This document shows positions 9,100 to 31,917 of a stretch of 51,086 nt of DNA, in pieces. A program made the position numbers and the translations under genes. The stretch is from Candidatus Adlerbacteria bacterium (GTDB lineage: Bacteria > Patescibacteriota > Minisyncoccia > Phycocordibacterales > SBAW01), in assembly GCA_003135635.1 (NCBI GenBank), contig PLCJ01000003.1, positions 1 through 51,086 on the forward strand. The letters are read 5' to 3'. The first letter of the stretch is position 1; each line of letters starts with the position of its first letter. The notes beneath the pieces are model-generated. The model had not been told where the DNA came from and did not search any database. It saw only the letters and a program-made list of their open reading frames with translations.

Positions 9100-11958
9100 A
9101 TGGAAGGGTATGATCACCGGAAAATAGAAAAAAAATGGCAAGAAAAATGGGAGCACGAAAAAGCATTTCAAGCGAAGGACGATACCTCAAAAGAAAAAGA
9201 ATACGTATTAATTGAGTTCCCGTATCCCTCCGGCGATGGACTGCATGTGGGACATATACGCTCCTGGACTGCGCTTGATATCGTAGCCCGTAAAAGACGC
9301 CTTGAAGGAAAAAATGTTCTCTACCCCATAGGATGGGATGCGTTTGGCCTGCCGACGGAGAACTATGCCATTAAAACCGGAAAAGATCCCCGCGTCGTAA
9401 CTAAAGAAAATACAGATATTTTTCGCCGGCAAATAAAATCTCTCGGTCTTTCTTTTGATTGGTCGCGTGAGATCAATACCAGCGATCCCACATACTATAA
9501 ATGGACGCAGTGGATTTTTTTGCAGTTGTATAAGCATGGCCTGGCATACAAAGCAAAAACACTCATCAACTGGTGCCCGAAAGATAAGATCGGGCTTGCC
9601 AACGAAGAAGTGATCGACGGAGCCTGCGAGCGCTGTGGCACCTTAGTTCAAAAGCGGGAGAAAGAGCAGTGGATGCTTGCCATCACCAAATATGCCAAAC
9701 GGCTCTACGAGGATCTGGATAGCGTCAATTACATCGAGCAGGCAAAAATTCAGCAAAGAAATTGGATCGGCCCGAGCGAAGGAGCACAAATTGCCTTTCC
9801 TGTTTTGGGAAGCGATAAAAAAATAGAAGTGTTCACCACTCGCCCCGATACCCTCTATGGCGCCACGTATGTGGTCTTGGCTCCTGAGCATCCCCTCGTG
9901 CTGGAGCTTGCACCACTGACAAAAAATAAGGGGGCAATAGAGACGTATGTCAAAGCGACCCGACAAACTTCCGAAATTGAGCGCACGGCAGAAGCAAGAG
10001 AAAAAACTGGCATCCTCATGGAGGGGATATGTGCGATAAACCCCGGGACGAAAGAAGCAGTTGCTATTTTTGTTGCTGACTATGTGCTGGGGAGCTACGC
10101 TACCGGCGCCATTATGGGCGTACCCCATCACGATGAGCGTGATTTTGAGTTTGCCAAGAGCAAGGGGCTTCCCATAAAAGAAGTTATAGAAGCACTTGTG
10201 GTGCGCGAGCAGGGTGAAGACGCGGTAAAAAAAGATATGCCCTTCACTGAGCGCCGCGCAGTGGTTGCGGTTATCAAGCATCCTTCAAAGGATAAATATC
10301 TCGGCGTGCGCTGGAAGCGCACCGGCTGGCAGGGGTTTGTTATTGGAGGGATTGAGGAAGGGGAAGAAGCACAAGAAGCCGCAAAGCGGGAAGTCAGGGA
10401 AGAGACGGGATATAAAAATATACGCGCTGTGGGAATACTCGGCGGCCCCATACACGCACAGTTCTACCAGACACTCAAAGCCGAGAATCGGTTTGCACAT
10501 TTTCAATTGGTACTCGTGGAGCTGGGCGACGAAGAGAAAACCGAAATAGCACCAGAGGAAAAAGTGTTACATGAATTTCTTTGGCTCAGCCCAGAGAAAA
10601 TGACGGCGTTCATTACGCACCGGGATATGCAAATTCTTTGGGATAGGGTTATCGGAAAGATCTGCTACAGCGGCACGGGAATACTCGTCAATTCAGGACA
10701 ATTTAGCGGCCTGCAAAGCGAAGAAGCAAAGAAAAAAATTACTGAGTTTGTGGGAGGTGTGTGGCTCACCGTCTTTAAACTGCGCGACTGGGTATTCTCT
10801 CGCCAGCGGTATTGGGGCGAGCCCATCCCTATGATCTTGTGCAAAAAATGCGGCTGGGTTCCGGTTCCCGAGGATGAGCTTCCCGTAATCTTGCCTGAAG
10901 TTACTCACTATCAGCCGACCGATACCGGAGAATCACCGCTTGCAACTATTTCACATTGGATACACACCACCTGTCCATCGTGCGGTGGAGAGGCTACCCG
11001 CGAGAGCGATGTGATGCCCAATTGGGCGGGCTCCTCGTGGTACTACTTGCGCTATTGCGATCCCAAAAATACCAAAGAATTTGCTTCGCCGGAGCACTTG
11101 AAATACTGGACGCCCGTTGATTGGTACAACGGAGGCATGGAACACACGACCCTCCACCTTTTATACTCGAGGTTCTGGCATAAATTTCTCTATGACCTCG
11201 CACTGGTACCAACCAGCGAACCGTACGCCAAGCGCACCTCCCATGGGCTCATTCTTGCCAAAGGAGGAGAGAAGATGTCAAAGTCAAAAGGGAATGTCAT
11301 CAATCCAGACGGCCTTATTGAACGCTTCGGCGCGGATTCGCTTCGGTTGTATGAAATGTTTATCGGGCCATTTGATCAACCGGTTATATGGAGCGACACA
11401 AATATTATTGGAACGAGACGTTTTGTAGAGCGAGCTTGGAGATTGATTTCTACCTTCACACAGCACCAAAAAACGGTGATGTCCCCTGAGGCAGTGCGCA
11501 TGATGAGTCACTCAATAGCAAAGATTTCTTCAGATATTGAATCGCTGAAAATGAACACGGCTGTCAGCCAATTGATGATTCTTCTTAATCATCTTGAGAG
11601 CACCACTCCAACAATGCAGGCCCTAGAGACGTTCCTGCGGCTCCTTTCTCCCTTTGCCCCCCATGTAGCAGGGGAGCTTTGGGAGAAAATGGGTACTACC
11701 ACTGCGATGGAAAAAGCAGGTTGGCCTACCACCCCCAAAGAGAGCGCCACAGAGCTTGAGGTAGCTTTAGTGGCGCTCCAAATAAATGGAAAAGTACGCG
11801 CTACGATAGAGCTTCCACTGAAAGCCTCCGAAAGAGAAGCCCTAGAAAAAGCCCGTCTGCACCCCGCCATCTCCCCAAGGCTCGCCCGGGGCAAAGAGGT
11901 GCGCGCGGTATACGTCCCTGGACGAGTCATTAATTTTGTTGTCTCCGACGTGGCTTGA
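9100..11958 (+). CDS. leuS: Leucine--tRNA ligase with a NUDIX domain inserted in CP1
   Basis: PYPSGDGLHVGH (HIGH), GWDAFGLP, TTRPDT, LRDWVFSRQRYWG, GGMEHTTLHL and KMSKSKGN; the NUDIX box lies at 10345-10413. Confidence 0.97.
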   Translation: MEGYDHRKIEKKWQEKWEHEKAFQAKDDTSKEKEYVLIEFPYPSGDGLHVGHIRSWTALDIVARKRRLEGKNVLYPIGWDAFGLPTENYAIKTGKDPRVVTKENTDIFRRQIKSLGLSFDWSREINTSDPTYYKWTQWIFLQLYKHGLAYKAKTLINWCPKDKIGLANEEVIDGACERCGTLVQKREKEQWMLAITKYAKRLYEDLDSVNYIEQAKIQQRNWIGPSEGAQIAFPVLGSDKKIEVFTTRPDTLYGATYVVLAPEHPLVLELAPLTKNKGAIETYVKATRQTSEIERTAEAREKTGILMEGICAINPGTKEAVAIFVADYVLGSYATGAIMGVPHHDERDFEFAKSKGLPIKEVIEALVVREQGEDAVKKDMPFTERRAVVAVIKHPSKDKYLGVRWKRTGWQGFVIGGIEEGEEAQEAAKREVREETGYKNIRAVGILGGPIHAQFYQTLKAENRFAHFQLVLVELGDEEKTEIAPEEKVLHEFLWLSPEKMTAFITHRDMQILWDRVIGKICYSGTGILVNSGQFSGLQSEEAKKKITEFVGGVWLTVFKLRDWVFSRQRYWGEPIPMILCKKCGWVPVPEDELPVILPEVTHYQPTDTGESPLATISHWIHTTCPSCGGEATRESDVMPNWAGSSWYYLRYCDPKNTKEFASPEHLKYWTPVDWYNGGMEHTTLHLLYSRFWHKFLYDLALVPTSEPYAKRTSHGLILAKGGEKMSKSKGNVINPDGLIERFGADSLRLYEMFIGPFDQPVIWSDTNIIGTRRFVERAWRLISTFTQHQKTVMSPEAVRMMSHSIAKISSDIESLKMNTAVSQLMILLNHLESTTPTMQALETFLRLLSPFAPHVAGELWEKMGTTTAMEKAGWPTTPKESATELEVALVALQINGKVRATIELPLKASEREALEKARLHPAISPRLARGKEVRAVYVPGRVINFVVSDVA

Positions 11959-16825: not shown

Positions 16826-16853
16826 GGCCGGGGAGCGTATACTGAAAAGTACT

Positions 16854-17684: not shown

Positions 17685-17731
17685 TACTGCTAGGAGTTCT
17701 CTAATTTTTAATCGTTATTTTAAGAGAACAT

Positions 17732-18310
17732 ATGTCAAATGAACAACCGAGGAACAACTTTTCAGTAAATAATTCAAATACCACTCCTCCCGTCGACACA
17801 TCAACGCTGAGGCTTATCAGTGCGTTTGTCGCGGGTGTTGTTTTATCCGGTCTTGTCATATGGGGAGTGGTGGCACTTCGAACGACCCACGGGCCAAGTA
17901 CACCCTCTTCAACAACCACAACTGCTACAACATCGCAACAACAAAGCGGCTCCGCGCTTGGAAGTTCTTTGGTACTTATAAACAATCAAGGACAAGCAGC
18001 GGTGCTCCTCCAAGGATCCCTGAGCGTAGCAGCACAGCCTGCGGGTACGAAAGTCGTAGTCGGCGGTATAGCAGTTTCTACTTCTACCTGGATTGTTGTA
18101 TATGACGATACCGCAAGCAAGCCGGGCAGGGTACTTGGAGCCATAAAGGCGTACCCAGGAGAGAGTTCCGTGACCGTGCCGCTCCTGCGGGCAACCGTAG
18201 CGGGAAGCACGTATCTGGTTGGCGAATCTACTCAAAATACAGGGAGCCATGGATACTCCAGCAAAACGACTCAGCAACTTAGTGTCTGGACCACATTCAC
18301 TGCAAAATAA
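17732..18310 (+). CDS. Single-pass membrane protein with Ser/Thr-rich linker and Ig-like extracellular domain, hypothetical
   Basis: One TM helix (LISAFVAGVVLSGLVIWGVV), an S/T/Q low-complexity linker and a beta-rich C-terminal domain. Confidence 0.7.
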   Translation: MSNEQPRNNFSVNNSNTTPPVDTSTLRLISAFVAGVVLSGLVIWGVVALRTTHGPSTPSSTTTTATTSQQQSGSALGSSLVLINNQGQAAVLLQGSLSVAAQPAGTKVVVGGIAVSTSTWIVVYDDTASKPGRVLGAIKAYPGESSVTVPLLRATVAGSTYLVGESTQNTGSHGYSSKTTQQLSVWTTFTAK

Positions 18311-18313
18311 AAC

Positions 18314-18802
18314 ATGCACGAAAACCTACCCTATCTCCTGCAGTCCTCTGGACTATTTCTCCAGGTGGTTGCCGCAACTCGGCTTCTTGTTGCGGCCGTG
18401 CTCGGGGGGCTTCTGGGGCTTGAGCGTTCAATCGCGGGCAAGCACGCGGGAATGCGCACGTATATCTTGGTGAGTCTCGGGTCGGCACTGTTTGTAGTTG
18501 TGGGAACGCTTGCGAGCTTTCAGCTCAGTGGATTTCCTTCCCTCAACCCGCTTCAGATAGCTGCCTCTATAGTCATCGGCATCGGATTTATTGGCTCCGG
18601 ACTCGCTGTGTTTCGCGGCGAGCAGCCAATTGAACTTACTACTGCCTCGGGTATCTGGGTTGCGGCGGGAATCGGCATGGCGTGCGGATACGGCTTTTTC
18701 ATTGTTGGGTTTGTGGCCATGCTTCTTGCAATTCTCACACTTTCTTTGTTGATCCCCGTTGAAAACAGCATTCGCAGCCGTTTTAGGAGAGAAAACCCTT
18801 AA
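18314..18802 (+). CDS. MgtC/SapB family membrane protein
   Basis: LGLERSIAGKHAGMRTYILV, IAASIVIGIGFIGSG, LTTASGIWVAAGIGMACG. Confidence 0.92.
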   Translation: MHENLPYLLQSSGLFLQVVAATRLLVAAVLGGLLGLERSIAGKHAGMRTYILVSLGSALFVVVGTLASFQLSGFPSLNPLQIAASIVIGIGFIGSGLAVFRGEQPIELTTASGIWVAAGIGMACGYGFFIVGFVAMLLAILTLSLLIPVENSIRSRFRRENP

Positions 18803-18843
18803 GCAAACTTTCCTTTTCTTCTGTTTTGTCCGACAATGAAAAG

Positions 18844-19683
18844 ATGCAGGGCTATGCAGTGCGAAAAAAAATTGCTTGGTTTAATCCGGACTCCCCAGAG
18901 CCCTATAAAATCAGCCGTACCCGCATCGACAATTTTCTTAAATGCCGCCGCTGTTTTTGGTTGGAAGAACGCTTCGGAATAAAAAAACCCGACAGCTATC
19001 CGCTCACACTCAACCTTGCCGTTGATGCGCTGCTCAAAAAAGAGTTCGATATACATCGAGCAAAGCAGGTCCCACATCCCCTAATGCGGGCCTATGGCAT
19101 TGATGCAGTGCCGTTTAAGCATGCCGAGCTTGATTCCTGGCGGCATAATTTCACCGGCGTTCGGTATCTACATCCAGACACCAATTTATTGGTATTTGGT
19201 GCCGTTGATGATGTGTGGATGGCCCCCCACGGGGAGTTATTTGTCGTTGATTACAAAGCAACTTCAAAAGCCGATACCCCGGCGCTTGAGGGTAGCTTGG
19301 GTGCGCAATACAAACGCCAAATGGAAGTCTATCAATGGCTTCTGGGGAAAAATGGCTTTACGGTTTCTAAAACAGGATACTTTGTCTATGCAAATGGCAA
19401 AAAAGATACTGAGGCGTTTGATGGAAAGCTTGAGTTTGAGATCACCGTGCTACCATGCAAGGGGGATATCCGTTGGATTGAACCCACGCTTGTTGAAATA
19501 AAAGCATGTCTGAGTAGCGATGTGATTTCCCCAAAAGGTACGGAATGCGAATATTGTCCGTACCGCGAAGCAGCAGGGGAGGCGCTCATGCGTCAGGAAT
19601 CAAAAGGCATAAAAACAAAATCAAATCGAAAAAAAATTGTCAAAAAACATGAAGAAGAACCGACCACAAAAAAGCTTTTCTGA
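18844..19683 (+). CDS. PD-(D/E)xK nuclease family protein (AddB/Cas4-like fold)
   Basis: ISRTRIDNFLKCRRCF, GAVDDVW..LFVVDYKAT, QMEVYQWL and a C-terminal CEYCPY. Start set at ATG 18844. Confidence 0.85.
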   Translation: MQGYAVRKKIAWFNPDSPEPYKISRTRIDNFLKCRRCFWLEERFGIKKPDSYPLTLNLAVDALLKKEFDIHRAKQVPHPLMRAYGIDAVPFKHAELDSWRHNFTGVRYLHPDTNLLVFGAVDDVWMAPHGELFVVDYKATSKADTPALEGSLGAQYKRQMEVYQWLLGKNGFTVSKTGYFVYANGKKDTEAFDGKLEFEITVLPCKGDIRWIEPTLVEIKACLSSDVISPKGTECEYCPYREAAGEALMRQESKGIKTKSNRKKIVKKHEEEPTTKKLF

Positions 19684-19915
19684 ACGAGTGTACGTAGTGG
19701 TGCAAAAGATTCCACGCGGCAAAACGCGTACGTATAAGGAAGTGGCCACACAGGCGGGAAGTCCGCATGCATACCGGGCCGTGGGGAACATTCTCAGTAA
19801 AAACTACAATCCAAGGATTCCGTGCCACCGAGTGGTGCGCACGGATGGCGCATTGGGAGGCTATAATCGCGGACTGGAGCGTAAGGCAGAGATGCTACGG
19901 GAGGAATCTTTGTGA
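19649..19915 (+). CDS. MGMT/Ogt-family methylated-DNA--protein-cysteine methyltransferase (C-terminal domain only)
   Basis: IPRGKTRTYKEVA..AYRAVGNIL..IPCHRVV, with the active-site PCHR intact. Confidence 0.9.
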   Translation: MKKNRPQKSFSERVYVVVQKIPRGKTRTYKEVATQAGSPHAYRAVGNILSKNYNPRIPCHRVVRTDGALGGYNRGLERKAEMLREESL

Positions 19916-19916
19916 C

Positions 19917-20510
19917 ATGTCCAAGTATGATGAGATGCGGCAGATACGCGATGAAGTCGTAGCGCTCAAAGAATCGCCTCTGTATGTCCAGCGGATAGAA
20001 AGCCATTATCTTCCGGTCATTGGTGAAGGGAATCACGATGCGCGCATTATGTTTGTAGGTGAAGCACCGGGGAAAAACGAAGCAAAAACCGGCCGACCCT
20101 TTTGCGGCGCAGCGGGGAAGCTTCTTGATGAACTCCTTCTCTCTATTGCTCTTCCGCGCAGCAATGTGTACGTCACCAATATCATCAAAGACCGTCCGCC
20201 AGAGAACCGTGACCCGCTCCCCGCTGAGATAGAGTTATACGGACCATTTCTTGATCGGCAGATAACCATCATTGAGCCCCGTGTCATTGCGACATTGGGG
20301 CGTTTTTCTTATGCGTATATTATGAAAAAATTTGACGTTGCTCTTTTTCTTGACCCCATAAGTGCGGCCCATGGAAAAATATTTGACGCTGAGGCTTCTT
20401 ATGGAGCAATTAAAATCATCCCGCTGTACCACCCCGCGGCGGCCATCTACAACCAGCATCTGAAGGCCACCTTATTTAAGGATTTTGAGGTGCTCAGGCA
20501 ATTTGTTTAA
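19917..20510 (+). CDS. Uracil-DNA glycosylase, family 4
   Basis: MFVGEAPGKNE, GRPFCGAAGKLLD, NIIKDRPPENRDP, PLYHPAA. Start set at ATG 19917. Confidence 0.93.
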   Translation: MSKYDEMRQIRDEVVALKESPLYVQRIESHYLPVIGEGNHDARIMFVGEAPGKNEAKTGRPFCGAAGKLLDELLLSIALPRSNVYVTNIIKDRPPENRDPLPAEIELYGPFLDRQITIIEPRVIATLGRFSYAYIMKKFDVALFLDPISAAHGKIFDAEASYGAIKIIPLYHPAAAIYNQHLKATLFKDFEVLRQFV

Positions 20511-20529
20511 CAGCAAACTTTAAGGTACT

Positions 20530-21819
20530 GTGCTTCTCGTGAAGAGTTTCTCGGTAAGGAAAATTCGCACCGCCTATGGCGTCTCGGAGTATCGCCTCGC
20601 AAACGGCTTGCGGGTGCTGTATCGCCATGAAACCGCTACGCCAGTGGTAGCGGTGTGTGTTACTTTTCATGTGGGGTCCCGCAATGAAGCGCGGGGACAT
20701 ACGGGCGCTACGCACATTCTTGAGCATTTGTTGTTTAAAGATTCAGTCCACTTCAACCGCGCAAATGATAATGCGATTACCGATTATCTAGAATGGTTTG
20801 GCGCCACGCTCAATGCGACAACGTGGTCTGACCGCACCAATTATTTTGAGCTCTTACCCCGTGAGCGTCTTCCGGAGGCGCTCCGGCTTGAAGCCGATCG
20901 CATGCGCGGCTCTCTTTTTTCCGACGCTGATCTTGCGACCGAAATGACCGTGGTGCGCAATGAATATGAGCGCTCACGAAACAACCCCTTTGAGCTTCTT
21001 GATGAAGCGGTCATGGCAACCGCTTTCACTACACACCCGTACCGAATTCCTACCATCGGTCTTAAGAAAGACATTGAAGGATCGACCGCGAAAAAACTTC
21101 GAGAATTTTATGATGCGTTTTATTGGCCCAATAACGCAACGCTTACCGTTATCGGGGACGTGCCGTGGAGTGTGGTGCGCAAATTTATACTTGCGTATTT
21201 TGCGCCAATCCCGCACTCTCCACATAAAATTCCATCCATGAATATACGAGAACCTATCCAAACCGCTTCCCGTACGTGTAGTCTAAAAAAACCACTGGGC
21301 ATTTCTCTTGCGTCTTTGGCATATAAAATTCCTGAGGGAACACATGCGGATTATCCCGCGCTACTTCTTCTTGGTATGGTACTTGCGGGCGGTTTTTCAA
21401 GTCGCCTTCAGAGAGTACTTGTTGATACCGGTTTGGCAGCTGGTCTTTCCGTAAATGCTTTTGCACTGCACGATCCCGGAGTGCTGAGCTTTATGGTACA
21501 TGTCGCCGAAGGAGTGAAGCCGCAAACAGTACTTACTGTGATGCATAAAGAGCTTGCGCGCTTTATCAAGGAAGGATGCACCGGGCGGGAACTCGCGCAC
21601 GCCAAAGAGCGCATCTTTTCTTATCTTGCGGCAGGGCGCGATGGGGTACTCAATGAAGCGCGAACGCTTTCTGAGGCGATAGCGGCGGGGGATTGGACGA
21701 TAGAATATAGTCTTGAGAGCATGCTCCGAAGGGTAGGAGTCGCTGAAGTCTCTCGTGTGGCAAAGAAATACCTCAGGAAGAGTCACGAAACTTCAGGGAC
21801 ACTTCGCAGCACAACATAA
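20530..21819 (+). CDS. M16 family zinc peptidase, active subunit
   Basis: Inverted zinc motif HILEH, with NATTWSDRTNY and a downstream E in VVRNEY. Confidence 0.92.
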   Translation: MLLVKSFSVRKIRTAYGVSEYRLANGLRVLYRHETATPVVAVCVTFHVGSRNEARGHTGATHILEHLLFKDSVHFNRANDNAITDYLEWFGATLNATTWSDRTNYFELLPRERLPEALRLEADRMRGSLFSDADLATEMTVVRNEYERSRNNPFELLDEAVMATAFTTHPYRIPTIGLKKDIEGSTAKKLREFYDAFYWPNNATLTVIGDVPWSVVRKFILAYFAPIPHSPHKIPSMNIREPIQTASRTCSLKKPLGISLASLAYKIPEGTHADYPALLLLGMVLAGGFSSRLQRVLVDTGLAAGLSVNAFALHDPGVLSFMVHVAEGVKPQTVLTVMHKELARFIKEGCTGRELAHAKERIFSYLAAGRDGVLNEARTLSEAIAAGDWTIEYSLESMLRRVGVAEVSRVAKKYLRKSHETSGTLRSTT

Positions 21820-21822
21820 TGT

Positions 21823-23097
21823 ATGTACGCATCGCGCATTAAAGAAAAGAAAACTTCTTGGGGTGGACGCATTTTTGTGACTACCTACCCCGCACAGGGA
21901 AGTGTTTCTATCGTGGGCAGTATCTTGGGTGGTTCACGACTTTCAAGCGCTCAGTGGGCAAAGGTGCATGCGGCAATGCTTCTTGAAGGGACGCGCTCGC
22001 ACTCAAAAAAAGAGCTTCAGATTATGCTTGATACTATCGGCGCGTCGCTCTCTTTTTACGCGACAAACGATCGTTTATGCTTTGCGGGCCGGGTCCGTGC
22101 AGTGCATATACAAGCCCTCCTCGCTCTTATTATGGAGTTGCTCGCTGAACCGACGTTTCCTGAGGCGGAACTCGCTATTTTAAAAAAGCGCGAAGAAACT
22201 GCGTTGACCCTTGAAGCGCAAGACACCAGAGCCCAAGCGAGCATTGCGTTTGCGCGCGCACTCTTTACCAAACAGCATCCGAATTTTTCTGAGACGACTG
22301 CAGAGAGTCGCCAGGAGCTTGTGCGCATGACGCGAACATCACTTGTGGCGCTTCACCGCAAAATACTCAATGGTCAATCACTTATTCTTTCCCTGGCAGG
22401 CGATATCACGCTTCCTCGGGGTGCGTCGTTGGTTGAGAAATATTTTAAGCGCCTTCCGCACAAGCGCGTGATGCTTCCGTCCTATACAAAAGCGTTCCCC
22501 ACAAAACCGCAGCATATCGCACTGCCGATAGCACATAAGGCAAGTATCGATTATTTGCTGGGGCTTACCGTGGGCATCGACAATGATCATCCTGATTTTC
22601 CTGCCTTGCTGCTGGGGTTGCAGATACTTGGAAGCCCAAGAGGGTTCACGGGAAGACTTATGAAAACGGTAAGAGAAAAAGAAGGTTTCACCTATGGAGT
22701 CTACGCATATGCTGCCGGATTTTCTCTAAAGTTAGACGGATACATTTTCATATGGGGCACGTTTGCCCCGGAACTTTTTGCGCAAGGACGAAAAGCTATT
22801 ATGCGCGAGATTACGTTGATTGCGGAAAATGGAGTGAGTGAAAAAGAGGTGAAAAAACATCGAGAGATGTTTGAAGCGCGCACCCGAGTGAGACTTTCAA
22901 CTTCCGAGGCATTTGCCCAAAGTGCTCATGATTTAGCCGCGGAGGGAAGGGCGATGACATATCTTGATGAGTTTTCAAAACGCATCCTCATGCTTTCAGC
23001 AAAAGAGATTAATCCTGTACTCAAACGCTATCTCAAACTGAAGCAGATGGTAGAGTCTGCCGCAGGACCAGTTGAGCAAAACATGCTCTCCCAGTAG
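21823..23097 (+). CDS. M16 family peptidase-like protein, inactive subunit
   Basis: M16 fold features (GRLMKTVREKEGFTYGV) but no HxxEH; adjacent to the active paralogue. Confidence 0.85.
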   Translation: MYASRIKEKKTSWGGRIFVTTYPAQGSVSIVGSILGGSRLSSAQWAKVHAAMLLEGTRSHSKKELQIMLDTIGASLSFYATNDRLCFAGRVRAVHIQALLALIMELLAEPTFPEAELAILKKREETALTLEAQDTRAQASIAFARALFTKQHPNFSETTAESRQELVRMTRTSLVALHRKILNGQSLILSLAGDITLPRGASLVEKYFKRLPHKRVMLPSYTKAFPTKPQHIALPIAHKASIDYLLGLTVGIDNDHPDFPALLLGLQILGSPRGFTGRLMKTVREKEGFTYGVYAYAAGFSLKLDGYIFIWGTFAPELFAQGRKAIMREITLIAENGVSEKEVKKHREMFEARTRVRLSTSEAFAQSAHDLAAEGRAMTYLDEFSKRILMLSAKEINPVLKRYLKLKQMVESAAGPVEQNMLSQ

Positions 23098-23107
23098 AGT
23101 ATAGATA

Positions 23108-24562
23108 ATGCTTATCAGCGACATACGTGCAAAGTATTTAGCGTTTTATAAAGAGCGAGGGCATGCGGTCATCCCTTCCTTCCCGCTGGTGCCGAAGAAT
23201 GACTCCTCAACTCTTTTTGTGAGCTCCGGTATGCAGCCACTCATGCCGTATTTTTTGGGCAACACTCATCCCGCAGGAGTGCGGCTTGTCGATGCTCAGA
23301 AATGTTTCCGAGCGGTGGATATCGAGGAGGTGGGAGATAATCGCCACACCACCTTTTTTGAGATGCTGGGGAACTGGTCTTTTGGCGATTATTTTAAAAA
23401 AGAACAATTGTCGTGGTTATTTGAATTTCTGACTAACCCGAAAGAGGGGATTGGCCTTGATCCAGAGCGCCTCTATATAACGGTGTTTGGGGGCGATGAT
23501 GCTCACACCATTCCCAAAGATACCGAGTCAGCGGCGATTTGGAAAAAACTTTTTGCCGATAAAAATATTAAGGCCAAGGAGGTATTTTTGGGAAGCGAAG
23601 AAGAAGGCTACCACAATGGCATGCAAGGAGGCCATATTTTTTATTACAACGTCAAAAAAAATTGGTGGAGTCGCGCAGGAGAGCCGGAGCATATGCCTGT
23701 GGGTGAACCGGGGGGGCCCGACGCTGAAGTATTTTATGATTTCGGCACCCCCCATGACTCACGCTTTGGGGCACAGTGTCATCCTAATTGTGACTGCGGC
23801 CGTTTTGTTGAAATCTGTAATTCCGTTTTTATGCAATACATAAAAAAGGAAGACGGGTCATTTGTCTCACTGTCTAAACATAACGTTGACTTCGGGGGTG
23901 GTCTTGAGCGTCTCGCGGCTGCCAGTAACCACAATCCGGATGTTTTTTCCATCGATGTGCTGAGTGCCATAATCCATGAGCTGCAATCATTATCGGGCGT
24001 ATCATACGAGGATGAATCTCATCGGAAATCATTTCGTATCGTGGCAGATCATATGCGTGCCGCTGTGTTTATGCTGGCCGATGGGGTTATTCCTTCCAAC
24101 ACAGAGGCTGGCTATATCGCTCGCCGTCTTATCCGTCGCGCGGTGCAACATGCCGACAGGTTAGGAATCATCGCTCCCGGCTCTTTAACTCCAATTGTCG
24201 CGGTGATCGCAAAAGAATATTATCAATGGTATCCGGAACTGAGCTCAGAGCGTATGGATGCTATTGCCCAGCTTATTGGACGAGAAGAGGAGCGTTTCCG
24301 TAGCACGCTTGCAGAAGGTATGCGACAACTTGATGTGTGCATTAAAAAGAGAGAAGTCACCGGACATGATGCTTTTATTCTTTTTACGACCTACGGCTTT
24401 CCTTTTGAGTTAACAAAGGAAATCGCCGAAGAGCATGGCATCACGGTTGATACAGAAGCATTCAAAAATGCTATGCGTGAGCACCAGGAACGCTCTCGAG
24501 TCGGAGCTGAGCAGCGATTTAAGGAAGGTCTTGGTGATACTAAGGATAAAAGCAGCACTTAA
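23108..24562 (+). CDS. alaS: Alanine--tRNA ligase, short form lacking the editing and C-Ala domains
   Basis: TLFVSSGMQPL, QKCFRAVDIEEVGD..HTTFFEMLGN, VDFGGGLERL, IVADHMRA, TYGFPFELT. It stops at TAA after 484 aa, before the HTATH editing motif. Confidence 0.93.
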   Translation: MLISDIRAKYLAFYKERGHAVIPSFPLVPKNDSSTLFVSSGMQPLMPYFLGNTHPAGVRLVDAQKCFRAVDIEEVGDNRHTTFFEMLGNWSFGDYFKKEQLSWLFEFLTNPKEGIGLDPERLYITVFGGDDAHTIPKDTESAAIWKKLFADKNIKAKEVFLGSEEEGYHNGMQGGHIFYYNVKKNWWSRAGEPEHMPVGEPGGPDAEVFYDFGTPHDSRFGAQCHPNCDCGRFVEICNSVFMQYIKKEDGSFVSLSKHNVDFGGGLERLAAASNHNPDVFSIDVLSAIIHELQSLSGVSYEDESHRKSFRIVADHMRAAVFMLADGVIPSNTEAGYIARRLIRRAVQHADRLGIIAPGSLTPIVAVIAKEYYQWYPELSSERMDAIAQLIGREEERFRSTLAEGMRQLDVCIKKREVTGHDAFILFTTYGFPFELTKEIAEEHGITVDTEAFKNAMREHQERSRVGAEQRFKEGLGDTKDKSST

Positions 24563-24610
24563 TATGTAGAAAGTGCTACCTAACTCCGCCATTTGTGGGA
24601 ATGAGTTATA

Positions 24611-24654
24611 TAAAACAGGAAACCGCCTCATCATGAGACTCGGCGGTCTCTTTT
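24611..24654. terminator. Bidirectional intrinsic terminator between alaS and the convergent orphan ORF
   Basis: accgcc (24622-27) / ggcggt (24642-47) stem with an inner ctca/tgag helix, followed by ctctttt on + and preceded by an A-rich run (U-rich on -). Confidence 0.7.
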
Positions 24655-24702
24655 GTGGCGGTTGTAGTGTCTCTTTTAACAACTTCGCGACTCGGCCTTC
24701 AT

Positions 24703-25173
24703 CTATGCTCTTACCGCTGCCTCTCCAGACAAAAAACAGCAGGGCCTCAGGTCGATGGACCATTCTGTGGCAGAAGCGGTTACTGGCGTCTCCTGTGAAG
24801 TAATGTGTCTTCCTGTGACCATCAATTCAATATGAACCACAGTGGGGCTGCTCCGTTTGAGGAAGTCTTGCAAGCCTTCTTTGAGCCACTGGTCTCCCTT
24901 GTGACCTCCTAGGATATCTACAAGATCCAGCTCTCTGCACCAGTTCTTTTCCTGGTAGCTACATGAATATAAAGCCGAAGCGTGTGGACCCCCTCGCATA
25001 GTAGTGACACACACTGTGATGCTGAGAGGAAAAGAAACTGCGTTTAGGTCTCCTTTCTTATGTTCGTATTTGGCGAGGGCTCGTGAAACAATGCGGCGCA
25101 GATTAGGGTTGCGCTTGCAGAGTTCTGGAAAATCGAGGATGTATTCCACTTGCTGCCTTTCTAGCAAAGCCAA
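24703..25173 (-). CDS. Orphan hypothetical protein (156 aa)
   Basis: Fills an otherwise empty interval. A minus-strand promoter ATGACT-17-TATAAT lies upstream (TATAAT at 25197-25202) and it ends near the 24611-24654 terminator. No recognisable motif. Confidence 0.55.
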   Translation of the reverse strand: MALLERQQVEYILDFPELCKRNPNLRRIVSRALAKYEHKKGDLNAVSFPLSITVCVTTMRGGPHASALYSCSYQEKNWCRELDLVDILGGHKGDQWLKEGLQDFLKRSSPTVVHIELMVTGRHITSQETPVTASATEWSIDLRPCCFLSGEAAVRA

Positions 25174-25256
25174 CGATACAGATAACCTCTGGCGAGATTA
25201 TATATCGGCCTTATTTGAAAGTCATCTATCTTTTTTGTTGCTGCTGAAATATCCAC

Positions 25257-25285
25257 TTGACAGTTTTTTTTGATATCCATATAGT
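25257..25285 (+). promoter_or_regulatory. Near-consensus sigma-70 promoter TTGACA-17-TATAGT
   Basis: TTGACA 25257-25262, 17-nt spacer, TATAGT 25280-25285. No long + strand ORF follows. Confidence 0.85.
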
Positions 25286-25291
25286 TATCTG

Positions 25292-25576
25292 TGGAAGAGA
25301 GGCAGTCTCGGGGCGAATTTTGGAGCTTAGGCTCCAGACAGAACGCAAAAGGAGGAGTTCTGTTCAAATGCGCTTTTTCACGGCTACCTGAGTTTCCGCC
25401 ACCCGTGTATAAGGAGAATTAGTGTACATGATTCGACTTACTCAGCCCCAAGGGGCTTCGAGAACCGGTTTGCGGGTGTTAGGTACGACTAAGAGCTAAC
25501 AAAGCTCATCCACCGTACCTAGCACGAAACGGTCCGATGTTGTTTGCTGCAAAGCATCCGCATCGGGCCGTTTTTT
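25292..25576 (+). ncRNA. Candidate structured RNA of unknown family (~285 nt)
   Basis: Bounded by the promoter above and a terminator with a U6 tail. Hairpins: tggagc/gctcca (25321-36), acagaac/gttctgt (25338-63), gtgttaggtacg/cgtacctagcac (25476-25525) enclosing gagct/agctc, and aaacggtccgatg/catcgggccgttt (25527-73). Confidence 0.6.
25527..25576 (+). terminator. Intrinsic terminator closing the candidate RNA
   Basis: 13-bp stem (one G-U pair) with an inner hairpin, running into tttttt (25571-76). Confidence 0.8.
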
Positions 25577-25590
25577 GATTGAGAACAAAG

Positions 25591-25638
25591 TAAAAAAGAA
25601 TTTGGGTCCGTCAAGAGTATTAATCTCAGACGGACCCA
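25591..25638 (-). terminator. Intrinsic terminator of the minus-strand orphan ORF
   Basis: Perfect 10-bp inverted repeat tgggtccgtc (25603-12) / gacggaccca (25629-38); the A-run at 25592-97 gives the U-tract on the minus strand. Confidence 0.8.
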
Positions 25639-25654
25639 GTGAGTGTCGAAACTT

Positions 25655-25906
25655 TCAGTGTCTCAGGTTATTGCAAATGCGTCTAACGTGCCCATGATCA
25701 TCAACTCTAAACTTCGCGAGAATACATGGGCGCCGCTCTTGTGATTTGTCTTTCTGCACTACAGTGCACACTCGAGCATCCCTGTCATACTCATGAGATC
25801 GTATGACGTGTTTTGGGGACGCGAGCAAAGGATGGTGTTCTTCAAGATATTCACGCACCGCCGCTATTGCTTCCTTTTCGGAAATCCTCCTCACCAATTC
25901 CTCCAT
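25655..25906 (-). CDS. Orphan hypothetical protein (83 aa)
   Basis: ATG start and a stop 16 nt before its own terminator. No recognisable motif. Confidence 0.55.
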   Translation of the reverse strand: MEELVRRISEKEAIAAVREYLEEHHPLLASPKHVIRSHEYDRDARVCTVVQKDKSQERRPCILAKFRVDDHGHVRRICNNLRH

Positions 25907-26102
25907 TCAGGATTAGTCTACTATTGGATATCAGAGTCACTACTCTTACTCCCTTATATTCTATTAATCCTTTCTCACCATTTAGTCAAATTACTCTCTC
26001 CACAGATAGATAGTTTTCCAAATGCTTAGATTTGCTTCCTGTAGACAGATTAACCCCCCAGTGCGCCCCTCAGTGGCTGTTTTGTTTTGCTATACTATAC
26101 AA

Positions 26103-27062
26103 ATGTCTTCTCTTTTCGGAAAGAAAAAGCTGGAAGAAAAAACAGTTGCTATCGTTGATATTGAAAATTCAAGCGTCGCAGCTGCACTCGTACAACTATC
26201 TCAAGAGGAACCAAAACTTTTCGCGGAAAAACGTACTTTTCTTTCCATTCCCCAGAGACTCCATGGGGAGAATCTTTTACACACCACGATTGCAGCCGCG
26301 CAGGAATTGCTTCTGCATGTGAGCGAAGTAGCGGCCCGCATGCGCATGCATAGGAAGCTGGCTCTCATGGGAGACGTACAGCAGGCGGTCGTATTTTTTG
26401 GACCACCTTGGGCTGAAATTGATACGACATCATCGGGCTCTGTCCAAGTGAATGCCCCGCGGGTACTCACTCAGGAGTTGCGCTCACAGATTGGAAGCGT
26501 ATTTGGCGATGTAGAAACTTCCTTCCACTCATTTGCAACTGCAGCAGCTCGCATTGCCCAAAGGAGTGTCCCTGATGAGCCATATCTTCTGTGCACCATA
26601 ACCGGGGAGATTACAGAGCTTACCCTCGCGCAAGAAGGGCGTATACTTGCTCGCGCCACACTTCCGGTGGGACTTTATACGCTGCTGCGCACGCTTACCA
26701 CTCACGGAGGGCTCTCACAAGCTGAGGCATACTCTGCACTGAAGCTGCAGTTTTCGTACTTAAAGGAACCCTTTGATTCAGTGGGTGAGCACTTTTCCAA
26801 TGCTTTGTATCATGGGCTGGAGGACATGGTTGCGTCGCTACCGACACGCAACGTATTTGTACTTGCTCATGAACCCAATGGTGAATGGTTTGCTCAGGCT
26901 ATTGTGTCGGATCCAAAAGTAGCCACCCTTTTTAAAGATGGAGGAGTAGTTCGCGCACTGCGCCCGGCACATCTCTCGCCATTACTTGCAGCACATGCTA
27001 CTCACCCAGATCTTTTTTTAATGCTTGAAGCGCTTTTTGTTGACGTACGGCATGGTGTATAA
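26103..27062 (+). CDS. PilM/FtsA-like actin-fold protein, divergent
   Basis: TVAIVDIENSSVAAALV resembles actin-fold phosphate-1; LCTITGEITEL..LPVGLYTL..LSQAEAYSAL resembles phosphate-2 and the following helix. TGcTATACT lies 6 nt upstream, fixing the start at 26103. Confidence 0.55.
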   Translation: MSSLFGKKKLEEKTVAIVDIENSSVAAALVQLSQEEPKLFAEKRTFLSIPQRLHGENLLHTTIAAAQELLLHVSEVAARMRMHRKLALMGDVQQAVVFFGPPWAEIDTTSSGSVQVNAPRVLTQELRSQIGSVFGDVETSFHSFATAAARIAQRSVPDEPYLLCTITGEITELTLAQEGRILARATLPVGLYTLLRTLTTHGGLSQAEAYSALKLQFSYLKEPFDSVGEHFSNALYHGLEDMVASLPTRNVFVLAHEPNGEWFAQAIVSDPKVATLFKDGGVVRALRPAHLSPLLAAHATHPDLFLMLEALFVDVRHGV

Positions 27063-27074
27063 TCTTTTCTATCT

Positions 27075-28361
27075 ATGCAAGACATGATTCCGCCTCAGGA
27101 TCGCTCCATTCGAAACATCCCTATAACCTTCAACGCTCGTCGCGGTCCTTCTTCTCGCGATGAGGCTCAGCAGACGCCACCACCGCGTCCCAGGCGCCCC
27201 TCTCATCATTCATCTTCCTCCCACGGGATCTGGCTTTGGGGCGGAGGCATTATTATCATCTGCGCTGTTCTCGGTATTCTTCTCTCCACTCTTTTTGTGG
27301 GGACAACAATAACGCTCTACCCCCGTACTGATACCGTTACGCCGGGCCCGATCACCGCAGCGCCGGGTGTTGGCGCAGGGGGACTGGCGTATCAAACGAT
27401 TTCTTTGACGCGTGTGGCAAGCACAACCGTAACTGCTTCTGGTAGCCAGCATATTTCCAATCCGGCGATGGGAGTTATAACAATTTACAATGCCTATAGC
27501 TCTGCAAGCCAGATATTAGTCGCCACGACACGCTTTGCAGCTCCAGACGGTAAGATATACCGCATTCACAGTGCCGTGACCGTTCCGGGGGCAACACAAA
27601 ACAATTCTGGGACACTACAGCCTGGTTCTGTTATCGCGACGGTATATGCAGATCAACCAGGGGCAGCATATAATCGTAGTGATCCAACAACGTTTACTAT
27701 TCCTGGATTTATGGGTGATCCGCGCTACAACAAGTTTTACGCACAATCTACTAATCCGATTTCTGGAGGATTTGTCGGAAATGAACCAGCAGTGGCGAAA
27801 GCAGATCTCACACAAGCTGAAACTGCGCTCAAGCAATCTCTTAATACCGACATTAGTGTAGCGATTACCGATAGCATCCCGAGCGGTTTTATTATAATTC
27901 CCGGTACCCTTGAAGCTTCCTACAGTGATATCTCCCAAACACCCACCTCAAGCAGCAGCACCGTAGCGCTCTCTCAAAATGCAACCGGTCGCGCGGTGAT
28001 GGTGAAAGAAACAGATCTAGCGGCAGCGGTTGCAGCTCAAAGCGTTTCGGGCTATAGCGGTGAAGCAGTTGCATTTGCCAACCCCAATGCAATCTCCGTT
28101 GCTCTCTCCTCCGGAAGCGCCACAAGCAGTGTACTGGGGCCCCTCAGTATCCAAGTATCGGGGCCCCTCACGCTCCAGTGGCAGCTTGACCAGGGAGCGA
28201 TAAAGCAAGCGCTTCTGGGCAAGCCAAAAGCCTCTTTTCAAACTATCATTCAGGCATTTGAGCCAGCGGTTCAGCGTGCAGAAGCAAAAGTACGACCGTT
28301 TTGGGAATCAACTTTCCCCACAGACCCCAATAGGATTACGGTGGTGATCGCGACCCAGTAA
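27075..28361 (+). CDS. Single-pass membrane protein with large extracytoplasmic beta domain (baseplate J-like)
   Basis: Disordered basic N-terminus, one TM helix, then GVITIYN..LVATTRF..DGKIYR..VTVPG..VYADQPG..FTIPGF, recalled from CPR proteins labelled baseplate J/gp47-like (unverified). Confidence 0.55.
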   Translation: MQDMIPPQDRSIRNIPITFNARRGPSSRDEAQQTPPPRPRRPSHHSSSSHGIWLWGGGIIIICAVLGILLSTLFVGTTITLYPRTDTVTPGPITAAPGVGAGGLAYQTISLTRVASTTVTASGSQHISNPAMGVITIYNAYSSASQILVATTRFAAPDGKIYRIHSAVTVPGATQNNSGTLQPGSVIATVYADQPGAAYNRSDPTTFTIPGFMGDPRYNKFYAQSTNPISGGFVGNEPAVAKADLTQAETALKQSLNTDISVAITDSIPSGFIIIPGTLEASYSDISQTPTSSSSTVALSQNATGRAVMVKETDLAAAVAAQSVSGYSGEAVAFANPNAISVALSSGSATSSVLGPLSIQVSGPLTLQWQLDQGAIKQALLGKPKASFQTIIQAFEPAVQRAEAKVRPFWESTFPTDPNRITVVIATQ

Positions 28362-28367
28362 AAATTA

Positions 28368-28396
28368 TTGACAGACAATAGTAGATACCGTAAGAT
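28368..28396 (+). promoter_or_regulatory. Sigma-70 promoter of the infA-alpha operon, TTGACA-17-TAAGAT
   Basis: TTGACA 28368-73, TAAGAT 28391-96. Confidence 0.85.
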
Positions 28397-28413
28397 ACGA
28401 TACGTCGCCTGCA

Positions 28414-28626
28414 ATGGAGAAAGAAGCATCTGAGGTACAGGGTATCGTGGAAGAAGCTTTACCTAACACCTTATTTCGTGTGTCCTTGGAAGAAACAAAA
28501 GAAGTAGTGCTTGCATATTTGGCGGGTAAAATGAGACTGCATCGCATCAAAGTCCTGGTCGGAGACCGGGTGGTGATGCAGCTTGAACCGTATGGAGGCA
28601 AAGCACGCATTGTGAGGCGGTTGTAA
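28414..28626 (+). CDS. infA: Translation initiation factor IF-1
   Basis: GIVEEALPNTLFRV..LAYLAGKMR..IKVLVGDRV. Confidence 0.97.
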   Translation: MEKEASEVQGIVEEALPNTLFRVSLEETKEVVLAYLAGKMRLHRIKVLVGDRVVMQLEPYGGKARIVRRL

Positions 28627-28632
28627 TTCTCA

Positions 28633-28746
28633 ATGAAAGTAAAAACATCCTTAAAAGCGCGTTGCGCGAACTGTAGAATTACTCGCCGAGGAGGGCGAGT
28701 GCGTGTTCTTTGCAGCAACCCGCGCCATAAGCAGCGTCAGGGATAA
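28633..28746 (+). CDS. rpmJ: 50S ribosomal protein L36 (absent from the ORF track)
   Basis: Translates to [37 protein letters not shown], with CxxC..C..H zinc ligands. Confidence 0.97.
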
Positions 28747-28758
28747 CAAATAATTGCT

Positions 28759-29139
28759 ATGCGTATTTCAGGCATTACTATTCCTGACAACAAACGTCTT
28801 GTCTTTGCGCTCACCGCGCTTTATGGTATTGGACTGCCACGCGCGAAAGTAATTTGTGCACAGGGGAAGCTCGACCCCATGCGTAAGACCAAAGAGCTCT
28901 CCGTAGAGGAGGAAAGCAAAATTCGCACCATTATCGATACGCTAAAGCTCGAGGGAGATTTAAAGCGGGAGGTCGCAGGTAATATAAAACGACTCAAAGA
29001 TATTCAGTCCTACCGTGGCTCGCGTCATACACGCCACTTGCCCTCACGCGGACAGCGCACCAAGACTAATTCCCGTACCGTGCGAGGCAATGTCCGCAAA
29101 ACAATGGGTTCAGGTCGCCGAAAGACTGAAAAAACATAA
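28759..29139 (+). CDS. rpsM: 30S ribosomal protein S13
   Basis: ALTALYGIG..SYRGSRHTRHLPSRGQRTKTNSRT. Confidence 0.97.
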   Translation: MRISGITIPDNKRLVFALTALYGIGLPRAKVICAQGKLDPMRKTKELSVEEESKIRTIIDTLKLEGDLKREVAGNIKRLKDIQSYRGSRHTRHLPSRGQRTKTNSRTVRGNVRKTMGSGRRKTEKT

Positions 29140-29166
29140 AGATTCTCTATAACCACTGATACACCT

Positions 29167-29595
29167 ATGGGTAAGAAACGAATAGTTAAAAAAGGAGGAG
29201 ATACAGAGAGCACAAAACGTGGGTCTCCTGCACGTGCTCCACGCCGAAAGATGGAGAGCGGGGTACTCCACGTTGAATCAACCTACAACAACACCAAAGT
29301 GCACCTTGCCGACAACATGGGTAACGTCGTCGTCTGGTCTTCAAGTGGAAGCCTCGGTTTTTCGGGAGCGAAAAAAGGTACGCCGTTTGCCGCTGCAAAA
29401 GTGGGAGAGTTTATAGGGGAGCGCGCCAATGCCATGGGTGTCAAAGAGGTCTCTGTTATCGTGACCGGAGTTGGTGCAGGACGAGAATCTTCCATCCGTG
29501 CTTTTGCGACCAAGGGTATTGTTATCGGCTCCATCAAGGACACCACCCCGGTGCCCCACAACGGTCCGCGACCGCGTAAGGCGCGTCGTGTATAA
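29167..29595 (+). CDS. rpsK: 30S ribosomal protein S11
   Basis: STYNNT..GFSGAKKGTPFAA..DTTPVPHNGPRP. Confidence 0.97.
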   Translation: MGKKRIVKKGGDTESTKRGSPARAPRRKMESGVLHVESTYNNTKVHLADNMGNVVVWSSSGSLGFSGAKKGTPFAAAKVGEFIGERANAMGVKEVSVIVTGVGAGRESSIRAFATKGIVIGSIKDTTPVPHNGPRPRKARRV

Positions 29596-29608
29596 CTCAT
29601 AACTATTT

Positions 29609-30211
29609 ATGCTTGTAGGACCAAAATATAAAATATGTAAACGCCTCGGTGCTTCGGTGTTTGAAAAATGTCAGACACAAAAATTCCAGCTTGCCGAAGC
29701 GCGCGCACCACGCCGAGCACGGCGTGGGGGAAGTGATTACGGATTACAATTGCTTGAAAAGCAAAAAGCACGCTTTACCTACGGAATTTCTGAAAGTCAG
29801 TTTAGCCGCTACGTGCATGAAGCAATGGAAAAAAAAGGTGCCGATACAAAACGGACACTTCTTTGGCGTCTTGAGGCTCGACTTGATAACGTGGTGTACC
29901 GCGCAGGATTTGTAAAAACACGCCGCGCAGCCAGGCAGATCGTTTCCCATGGCCATGTGATGGTAAATGGCCGCCGCGTGACTATTCCTTCTTATTGCGT
30001 TGCTGAAGGTGATAGTATTTCCATTCGTCCCGAAAGTCGCACCAGCCCCTTGTTTGCCGCTCGAAGCGAACAGGCCCAAGAGCACAAAGCACCAGGATGG
30101 ATGAGCGTGAGTGGAGAGGACTTTGTGGCTACGATTTCTGGAAGCCCCGATGTGGGGGAAACAGAGGCCCCTTTTGATGTGGCAAAGACAATACAGTTCT
30201 ATAGTCGATAG
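29609..30211 (+). CDS. rpsD: 30S ribosomal protein S4
   Basis: GPKYKICKRLG, SDYGLQLLEKQK, LEARLDNVVYRAGF..ARQIVSHGH. Confidence 0.97.
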   Translation: MLVGPKYKICKRLGASVFEKCQTQKFQLAEARAPRRARRGGSDYGLQLLEKQKARFTYGISESQFSRYVHEAMEKKGADTKRTLLWRLEARLDNVVYRAGFVKTRRAARQIVSHGHVMVNGRRVTIPSYCVAEGDSISIRPESRTSPLFAARSEQAQEHKAPGWMSVSGEDFVATISGSPDVGETEAPFDVAKTIQFYSR

Positions 30212-30249
30212 AAGTTTATTTATTAGCTAGAGTAAAAAACGATTGAGTT

Positions 30250-31212: not shown

Positions 31213-31214
31213 TC

Positions 31215-31562
31215 ATGCGCCATCATAACACCAACAGAAAATTTGGTCGTACCTCAGGACAACGCCGGGCACTTTTGCGCTCCTTGGCTCGTTCGTTGGT
31301 ACTACGGGGTCGTATCACTACCACCCAGGCACGTGCCAAGGAAGTGCGACCGTTTATAGAAAAGATGCTCACCCGCGCCAAGAAAGATACGCAAGCAAAT
31401 CGCCGGATTCTTATTGCATCCTTGGGTGATAACACCGTGGCCGTGAAGCTTATAAAAACAGCAGAAAACTATACCACCAGAGCTGGCGGCTATGTGCGTA
31501 TTGTAAAAACTGGTCCTCGCAAAGGGGACGCCAGTCCCATGGCGCTTATTGAGTTTGTATAA
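31215..31562 (+). CDS. rplQ: 50S ribosomal protein L17
   Basis: MRHHN..KFGR..RRALLRSL..ITTTQARAKE..RKGDASPMALIE. Confidence 0.97.
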   Translation: MRHHNTNRKFGRTSGQRRALLRSLARSLVLRGRITTTQARAKEVRPFIEKMLTRAKKDTQANRRILIASLGDNTVAVKLIKTAENYTTRAGGYVRIVKTGPRKGDASPMALIEFV

Positions 31563-31569
31563 CCCCTGT

Positions 31570-31914: not shown

Positions 31915-31917
31915 CAT

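Follow-up and report, generated by a model that had tools for sequence, protein, structure and literature searches.

A two-domain alanyl-tRNA synthetase, probably without proofreading, encoded beside an orphan insert in a Candidatus Adlerbacteria genome

Can a cell make do with a single alanyl-tRNA synthetase (AlaRS) that has lost its editing domain? Editing by AlaRS is regarded as the most strongly guarded proofreading step of translation, a safeguard described as protected in all domains of life. The question is raised by alaS in a 51,086-nt stretch of Candidatus Adlerbacteria DNA (hereafter the window), which opens contig C1 of a three-contig genome (602,608 bases, rated 95.31% complete and 0.06% contaminated). 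The gene stops just ahead of the region that encodes the editing domain in relatives, and orphan DNA takes the place of that region. The short alaS is a real gene, not an assembly break, and its product is, judging from the sequence, probably a genuine cellular mini-AlaRS without proofreading. This would be, to our knowledge, the first known cellular organism without a safeguard against Ser/Gly-for-Ala errors; our search of the literature, with supplements outside its scope, found no cellular sole AlaRS lacking both an editing domain and the known backups, the nearest finds being the viral mini-AlaRS and a preprint on small-AlaRS. The features on which the argument rests are as follows.

23108..24562, plus strand: truncated alaS, 484 aa, ATG start, the only AlaRS gene of the genome
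24560..24562, plus strand: TAA stop of alaS, at the limit of homology with relatives and 2 alignment columns short of the first His in HxxxH
24563..26102, no strand: orphan insert ("islet") of 1,540 nt, in place of the ~150 codons for the editing domain in relatives
24625..24657, both strands: two-way terminator-like hairpin with T-runs, which could end alaS (plus) and the open reading frame (ORF) orf156 of the insert (minus)
26103..27062, plus strand: conserved downstream neighbour (orf346 homologue), its start inferred from the starts in relatives

The 484-aa protein ends in ...EQRFKEGLGDTKDKSST, followed by TAA. Its sole Pfam family is tRNA-synt_2c (PF01411; E 5.6e-123), matched over residues 5-470 and profile positions 1-435 of 552. 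This is the single PF01411 match in the genome, making alaS single-copy. The editing-domain family tRNA_SAD (PF07973) has no Pfam match in the protein, and alignment with 119 relatives places the last residue 2 columns ahead of the first His of HTAxH. Two NCBIfam alaS models score below their cut-offs (NF002436, 469 versus 529 bits; TIGR00344, 411.3 versus 457.05 bits), a shortfall that fits a missing C-terminal part. The class II catalytic core and the tRNA-recognition domain of AlaRS are both present, and the complete ORF, with its own stop and a terminator-like hairpin behind it, holds these two domains only, which is the architecture of a mini-AlaRS; the three-domain architecture of a small-AlaRS is found in the relatives and not in this protein. 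Crystallised catalytic fragments of AlaRS (9jc7, 435 aa; E. coli 3hxu, 441 aa; 1riq, 465 aa) align with it at E 2.6e-84 to 1e-72, with query residues 465-468 facing fragment chain residues 427-437, so that the alignment reaches to ~16-19 residues from the AlaRS C-terminus. Because the alignment with these solved fragments runs nearly to the last residues, alaS ends at a natural boundary past the tRNA-recognition domain.

Downstream of the TAA, none of the three forward frames holds an editing motif and all run into further stops. A 165-position hidden Markov model (HMM) of the relatives' editing domain scores below 0 bits on all six frames of 24500-26150. Read-through and an alternative genetic code were rejected on these grounds. 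The plus-strand stem of the terminator-like hairpin, at 24635-24650, carries a T-run and lies 73-95 nt past the stop; it is mirrored by a minus-strand hairpin at 24639-24625. The initial annotation of this DNA, made from the letters alone, had described a frame that stops before an HTATH-type editing domain, with no editing motif in the three frames that follow and a terminator soon after the stop, and had read it as a settled short gene; the description is borne out point by point.

Assembled reads agree with the short gene. A Logan contig of 17,959 nt from run X1, a 2018 peat metagenome, covers 22500-27500 with 0 differences and 0 gaps and spans both junctions of the insert; the assembly break at about 24540-24570 that had been named as a possible refutation is not seen there. 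Run X2 is a 2025 peat metagenome that belongs to another study and another sample; its 19 contigs on alaS, the insert and the neighbour gene are each at least 99% alike. The listed pieces, with 0 differences each, cover 23234-23673 of alaS, 24597-24857, 24832-25040, 25086-25363 and 25607-26119 of the insert, and the neighbour gene; none extends over ~24504-24596 in this run of 2-4x depth, leaving the left junction uncovered. The genotype persists in two studies. Neither alternative joints nor loose ends occur at either junction in the X1 and X2 contigs; the four loose ends seen in X1 are those of two short contigs touching conserved alaS motifs at 23354-23391 and 23775-23808. Run X4 has no contig on this stretch. 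An identical 484-aa protein appears in NCBI, ENA and Logan records, encoded on two contigs of which the longer measures 340,336 nt (the contig studied here measures 165,337 nt). Patterns for the junction and for orf156 gave 0 exact matches in metagenome and genome contig collections, where the source genome's own records are possibly hidden.

Comparison with relatives revealed what the insert displaced. In three same-genus genomes (L011, L012 and L013), the alaS stop abuts or overlaps the start of the orf346 homologue, and the frame at 26103..27062 shows 37-41% tblastn identity to the frame directly 3' of alaS in these genomes, with a codon score of 0.225. Gene order is collinear on both sides of alaS for >20 kb with G004 and G001 and for ~12 kb with G024, the block comprising genes at 13290-19680, alaS, and genes at 26010-36685. 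Between alaS and the conserved neighbour, the sole difference is the presence of 1,540 nt instead of the ~150 editing-domain codons of the relatives. Homology continues up to the last alaS codons (GLGDTKDKSST, versus GLADTSEKTTR in relatives), which places the breakpoint at the stop codon. The initial annotation had offered, as a second possibility, displacement of the alaS 3' end by the neighbouring orphan islet, and this mechanism is thereby supported.

The editing domain is a fixture of the relatives. An AlaRS protein search over the 8000 candidates sharing most words, all with E <0.001, listed 119 non-self homologues, of which the nearest is 63% identical and the named ones come from Ca. 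Kaiserbacteria (the closest of the named), Paceibacterota, Parcubacteria and Patescibacteria. PF07973 is matched in 116 of the 119 (613-669 aa); the remaining three, of 498, 535 and 550 aa, each contain the first part of the editing domain and look like products of cut genes. In 116/116 full-length relatives, HxxxH keeps its two His and CxxxH its Cys and His without variation, and past the end point of the truncated AlaRS these proteins run on for a median of 152 residues (138-170). These comparisons indicate that the editing domain was lost here rather than absent from the start.

Within the genus and an order sample, 40 of 41 genomes have an AlaRS match, and the frames that are not cut or split are all at least 562 aa except that of the source genome (485 aa). 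Across the order, 247 of 251 genomes at least 90% complete have an AlaRS core match; among the 150 matches listed (119 further ones exist), frames are at least 582 aa except that of the source genome and one 435-aa frame at a contig edge. PF07973 is matched in 250/251 of these genomes, most of which have exactly two matches (AlaRS and threonyl-tRNA synthetase, ThrRS) and 10 of which have three or more. Among those with an AlaRS core, the source genome alone has a weak sole PF07973 match (E 4.1e-6); the other single-match genomes reach E 1.2e-12 or better, and the match adjoins the AlaRS core where both are listed. The truncation is specific to the source genome within the 251 order genomes searched. 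In a phylum survey, PF07973 is matched in 401/401 genomes, the source genome having the weakest best E (4.1e-6; next 1.2e-8), a count that cannot reveal other editing-less AlaRS because the ThrRS domain scores as high outside the order. Some order genomes carry extra AlaRS-core matches beside a full-length alaS, among them G272, with four AlaRS-core matches, and G027, with a 402-aa frame at C1:125050-126072 and a 439-aa frame, interrupted by one TAG, at C1:128279-129544. These extra frames may be core-only paralogues or pseudogenes.

The remaining enzyme looks as if it works, its catalytic core being as conserved as in full-length relatives. Of 175 columns with a conservation of at least 97%, it keeps 167 and departs at 8, and two equally divergent full-length relatives are changed at 9/177 each; mean identity to relatives is 0.616 for the truncated AlaRS and 0.610 and 0.616 for the two controls. 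An earlier indication of core decay (8/170 changed versus 0-3 in the first controls) was superseded by these equally divergent controls. Two of the eight deviations, K470R and G473E, at positions at least 97% conserved in relatives, lie among the 15 C-terminal residues, adjoining the lost domain, and fit relaxed constraint on a former linker, or some time without the domain. The alaS codon score is normal (0.214), and all three tRNA-Ala genes keep G3:U70. Conserved pocket stretches are present in the alignment to the solved fragments, including the Asp of V-D-x-G-x-G-L-E-R, which we take to be Asp235. In the accessible part of PMC7373986, reviews blame Asp235 for unavoidable serine activation, the AlaRS active site being unable to exclude serine.

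The 484-aa AlaRS most likely still charges the G3:U70 tRNA-Ala species. A precedent is the two-domain Tupanvirus AlaRS, which, according to the accessible part of PMC10036535, charges tRNA-Ala specifically and rescues a yeast knockout. The relatives' AlaRS already lack C-Ala.

Cells add AlaX, DTD or ANKRD16 atop the cis editing domain of AlaRS (PMC6918089). The only PF07973 match in the genome lies in a 582-aa protein (C1:135103-136851) that combines tRNA_SAD with the class II core 2b and HGTP_anticodon, which identifies it as ThrRS. No AlaX and no split C-terminal AlaRS piece was found in the 602,608 assembled bases by Pfam, tblastn or HMM, the outcome of a check that the initial annotation had proposed, as was the comparison of AlaRS lengths above. 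With the last 175 residues of the AlaRS of four relatives as queries, tblastn returned only the alaS tail and a chance match; the editing-domain HMM, run with filters off on 11,226 six-frame stop-to-stop ORFs, gave a best E of 0.36. Two candidates were rejected: C1:54256-54035 (E 0.36), which lies antisense within a 496-aa frame, and C3:230375-230494 (E 0.007 in tblastn), which lies in a 279-aa frame and was not recovered by the HMM. DTD (PF02580) has 0 matches in the source genome, and YbaK/ProX (tRNA_edit, PF04073) gives only E 0.1, below cut-off, inside a 725-aa frame. Neither a second gene with the editing part, as in a split AlaRS, nor a free-standing trans-editing factor of the AlaX, DTD or YbaK/ProX type is therefore detectable in this 95.3%-complete assembly. 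DTD was likewise found in 0/41 genus and order-sample genomes, against 8/14 control genomes. The cis domain appears to be the sole known guard on tRNA-Ala in the group.

We consider it fairly likely that a genome-specific replacement turned a small-AlaRS into a mini-AlaRS that still charges tRNA-Ala, leaving Ser- and Gly-tRNA-Ala uncleared by known factors. A replacement event removed ~150 codons at the 3' end of alaS, which encode the AlaX-like editing domain of the small-AlaRS, and 1.54 kb of orphan DNA took their place, supplying the stop codon at the breakpoint and a terminator. The remaining sole AlaRS would go on charging G3:U70 tRNA-Ala species. Ser-tRNA-Ala and Gly-tRNA-Ala would stay uncorrected, because no cis or trans tRNA-Ala editing function was found in the assembled genome, and some Ala-to-Ser/Gly mistranslation would have to be endured. 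The sequence shows the gene structure, the replacement, the intact core and the lack of detectable editing genes; enzyme activity, mischarging and tolerance of it are proposed here from what is known of AlaRS and from editing loss in small-genome bacteria. The source, a bacterium from peat, is itself small-genomed and probably host-dependent. The stricter claim that tRNA-Ala proofreading is missing altogether, with a sole two-domain AlaRS and no AlaX, DTD or other deacylase, we hold to be evenly balanced on the sequence searches.

Several points weigh against this explanation. The truncation is a singleton and the nearest listed AlaRS is 63% identical, so its age and fixation are not shown by close relatives. 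Run X1 is probably the source of this DNA, which makes the Logan contig the work of an independent assembler and not independent data. The supporting data are contigs, which drop rare variants, so a full-length allele could coexist. The three-contig assembly is 95.3% complete, and an editing gene could lie outside the assembled sequence or come from a family not yet described. E. coli N461, a fragment that stops at nearly the same point, is a poor binder of tRNA-Ala and fails to rescue yeast (PMC10036535, accessible part), so the activity of a two-domain AlaRS is not to be taken for granted.

One alternative is that editing is supplied in trans, by an AlaX-like gene or a deacylase of unknown family located in the unassembled part, among the unannotated genes or conceivably in the insert itself. 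We judge this unlikely. The incompleteness of the three-contig genome leaves room for such a gene, and the insert holds two ORFs and a structured RNA without assigned function; against this stand the empty editing-domain HMM and tblastn searches of all 602,608 bases and the usual count of exactly two PF07973 matches per order genome. Free-standing AlaX was also rejected in the relatives, where the four short PF07973 frames checked (in G157, G113, G121 and G244) are alaS pieces at most ~400 nt from a contig end. The candidate elements of the insert are these.

24703..25173, minus strand: orf156, an ORFan of doubtful coding status, with no Pfam, PHROG or NCBIfam family
25257..25285, plus strand: promoter-like site TTGACA-17-TATAGT, 11/12 consensus positions; such sites are no commoner here than in shuffled sequence
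25400..25585, plus strand: strongly structured stretch ending in a long hairpin and U-run; minimum free energy -77.6 kcal/mol, z = -6.82, 0/200 shuffles as good
25655..25906, minus strand: orf83, a small ORF with no family in the libraries searched, its exact sequence absent from the protein collection

Both ORFs score like non-coding DNA (orf156 -0.012, orf83 -0.061; real genes average 0.235, with a 5th percentile of 0.096, and spurious ORFs -0.111), and their status as genes is doubtful on this measure. Among 5.8 billion clustered proteins, orf156 finds only itself, and among 1.84 billion representatives itself and one marginal 36-residue match. Its AlphaFold2 (AF2) model has a predicted local distance difference test (pLDDT) score of 46, too poor for a fold search, and its Atlas recognition is 1609, with no usable Atlas match. 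The idea that orf156 is a hidden AlaX, suggested by its 156 aa and a "GGPH" string, was rejected on its lack of family and relatives and its low-confidence model. That the orphan DNA codes for some replacement function not yet recognised is unlikely.

The second alternative, equally unlikely in our estimate, is that the short allele arose recently as a slightly deleterious strain variant, and that it exists beside a full-length allele or is on its way out. Its singleton status among 251 order genomes and 119 listed non-self homologues is compatible with this, as are the loss of rare variants from contigs and a catalytic core that lacks the added divergence to be expected after long evolution in the domain's absence. 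Yet the same insert recurs with 0 differences in the listed pieces of the second study's 2025 run, compared with 2018 for the first, no contig in either run continues otherwise at the junction, and K470R and G473E fit some time without the domain.

Less probable still is an assembly or binning artefact that wrongly joined the 5' part of alaS to the insert while the true gene is full-length: the genome is metagenome-derived, alaS is cut by contig ends in several relatives and orf156 is on record only in JGI/IMG, on a 1,099-nt contig, but the flanks of the insert are neighbours in relatives within the collinear block of >20 kb, so that two false joins restoring ancestral neighbours would be needed, and the other assembler's single contig over the whole stretch, the identical sequences of the second study and an insert base composition equal to the genome's all oppose it.

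The mini-AlaRS that we favour shares its two-domain architecture with that of Tupanvirus (TuAlaRS), which the accessible part of PMC10036535 describes as G3:U70-specific and able to support growth. According to the same text, TuAlaRS is viral and related to the eukaryotic AlaRS of its amoeba host, which keeps its full enzyme, whereas the present protein is bacterial and the sole AlaRS of its cell, and its loss is traceable to replacement by the insert. All 119 listed homologues are bacterial, the named ones of Patescibacteria type at 59-63% identity, so descent shared with TuAlaRS finds no support: the two-domain AlaRS here is an independent loss, alike in architecture only. The small-AlaRS of the Candidate Phyla Radiation (CPR), DPANN and Asgard archaea comprises catalytic, tRNA-recognition and editing domains and no C-Ala, as stated in the accessible part of 10.1101/2023.05.29.542759. 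The relatives' AlaRS of ~600-640 aa are of this type, and the source AlaRS derives from it but lacks the whole editing domain. Engineered AlaRS fragments (E. coli 1-441 and N461; A. aeolicus 1-453/465; 3hxu, 1riq, 9jc7) have almost the same end point; they are laboratory constructs, whereas here the short form is the natural sole gene, in a lineage already without C-Ala. The split AlaRS of Nanoarchaeum equitans likewise has its catalytic part in an ORF without the editing part (PMC10036535, accessible part), but no second piece was found in the source genome.

Editing loss in host-restricted bacteria is described in the reviews PMC7373986 and PMC10057733 (citing Li 2011 and Melnikov 2018), as far as their accessible parts go. 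The editing-defective synthetases of Mycoplasma and other host-restricted bacteria discussed there resemble the present case in that a small-genome bacterium loses proofreading and a statistical proteome is expected; the same accessible parts name leucyl-tRNA synthetase (LeuRS) and PheRS of Mycoplasma and "many aaRSs", not loss of the whole AlaRS editing domain. Already known, then, are a two-domain AlaRS in a giant virus, a three-domain small-AlaRS in CPR and editing loss of other synthetases in reduced bacteria.

If the proposed loss is true, either the catalytic site discriminates better than that of any studied AlaRS or the proteome is statistically mistranslated at alanine codons. A natural, sole, editing-less AlaRS without known backups would be a direct test case of whether a minimal, probably host-attached bacterium can survive Ala-to-Ser/Gly errors, or whether a two-domain AlaRS has another route to specificity. 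This small protein could be produced and assayed beside a full-length relative. The case also illustrates how such a loss originates: one replacement event at a variable spot brought it about, not gradual decay. The finding is solid at the level of the gene, but it carries limited weight, coming from one metagenomic genome without close relatives.

The window also encodes a LeuRS (9100..11958, plus strand, 952 aa), in which a NUDIX domain (residues 385-501) directly follows the CP1 editing domain (residues 220-366), with the remainder of the editing-domain profile resuming after it. The initial annotation had noted this NUDIX-modified LeuRS, and the domain is real. NUDIX occurs within LeuRS-sized frames (at least 880 aa) in ~20 of 40 relatives, all with full AlaRS, so the LeuRS insertion and the AlaRS truncation are independent. 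ThrRS of the source genome keeps its editing-type domain. On these comparisons the LeuRS NUDIX is a lineage-wide oddity and the AlaRS loss is private to the source genome, with no sign of a general remodelling of proofreading. The annotation's overall interpretation is supported for the real short gene, the lack of AlaX in the assembled genome and the displacement by the islet, and is not supported for proofreading remodelled in the lineage.

The insert itself is native in composition, with a GC content of 0.461 versus 0.465 for the genome and with 54.5% of random windows at least as far in tetranucleotide content. The genome contains one copy of it, terminal repeats longer than 25 nt at 76% are lacking, no phage record matches it, and the 79 other genus genomes yield no more than two marginal matches, of 35 and 52 nt. 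A mobile element or phage piece was rejected on these grounds. The structured stretch that follows the promoter-like site may be a small RNA of ~280 nt, to judge from its predicted fold, and has no counterpart in 79 genomes of the genus. It has no Rfam family at gathering score or E<=0.3, the two matches being at chance level (E 0.37 and 0.98), and identity with a known RNA was rejected, the transfer-messenger RNA lying elsewhere (C3:39374-39753). 6S RNA was undetected anywhere in the genome by a search that finds it in only 5 of 14 control genomes. The T-run at 25571 varies in length by 1 nt in one sequencing run, and a perfect 10-bp hairpin (I24) follows orf83 at 25603-25638.

Upstream of alaS lies a pair of M16-type peptidase genes (20530..21819 and 21823..23097) with no counterpart at this position in the three same-genus genomes, which carry 3.4-4.4 kb of different sequence in place of 19680-23105. 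This second variable spot, just upstream, sets alaS between two plastic spots. Downstream, the plus-strand frames 26103-27062 and 27075-28361 are conserved after alaS across the genus, and their proteins are tightly linked to alaS; 26103-27062 has no Pfam family, and the pair otherwise has chance-level NCBIfam matches at most.

Among the tRNA genes of the genome, ARAGORN lists a tRNA-Stop(tta) at C3:117592-117665. Shifting the anticodon stem by one base gives the loop CTTTTAA, that of tRNA-Lys(UUU), and Lys(ttt) is otherwise missing among the 47 tRNA genes; the gene is probably tRNA-Lys(UUU) and not a suppressor. ARAGORN also lists a tRNA-Ile(tat) at C3:36808-36881.

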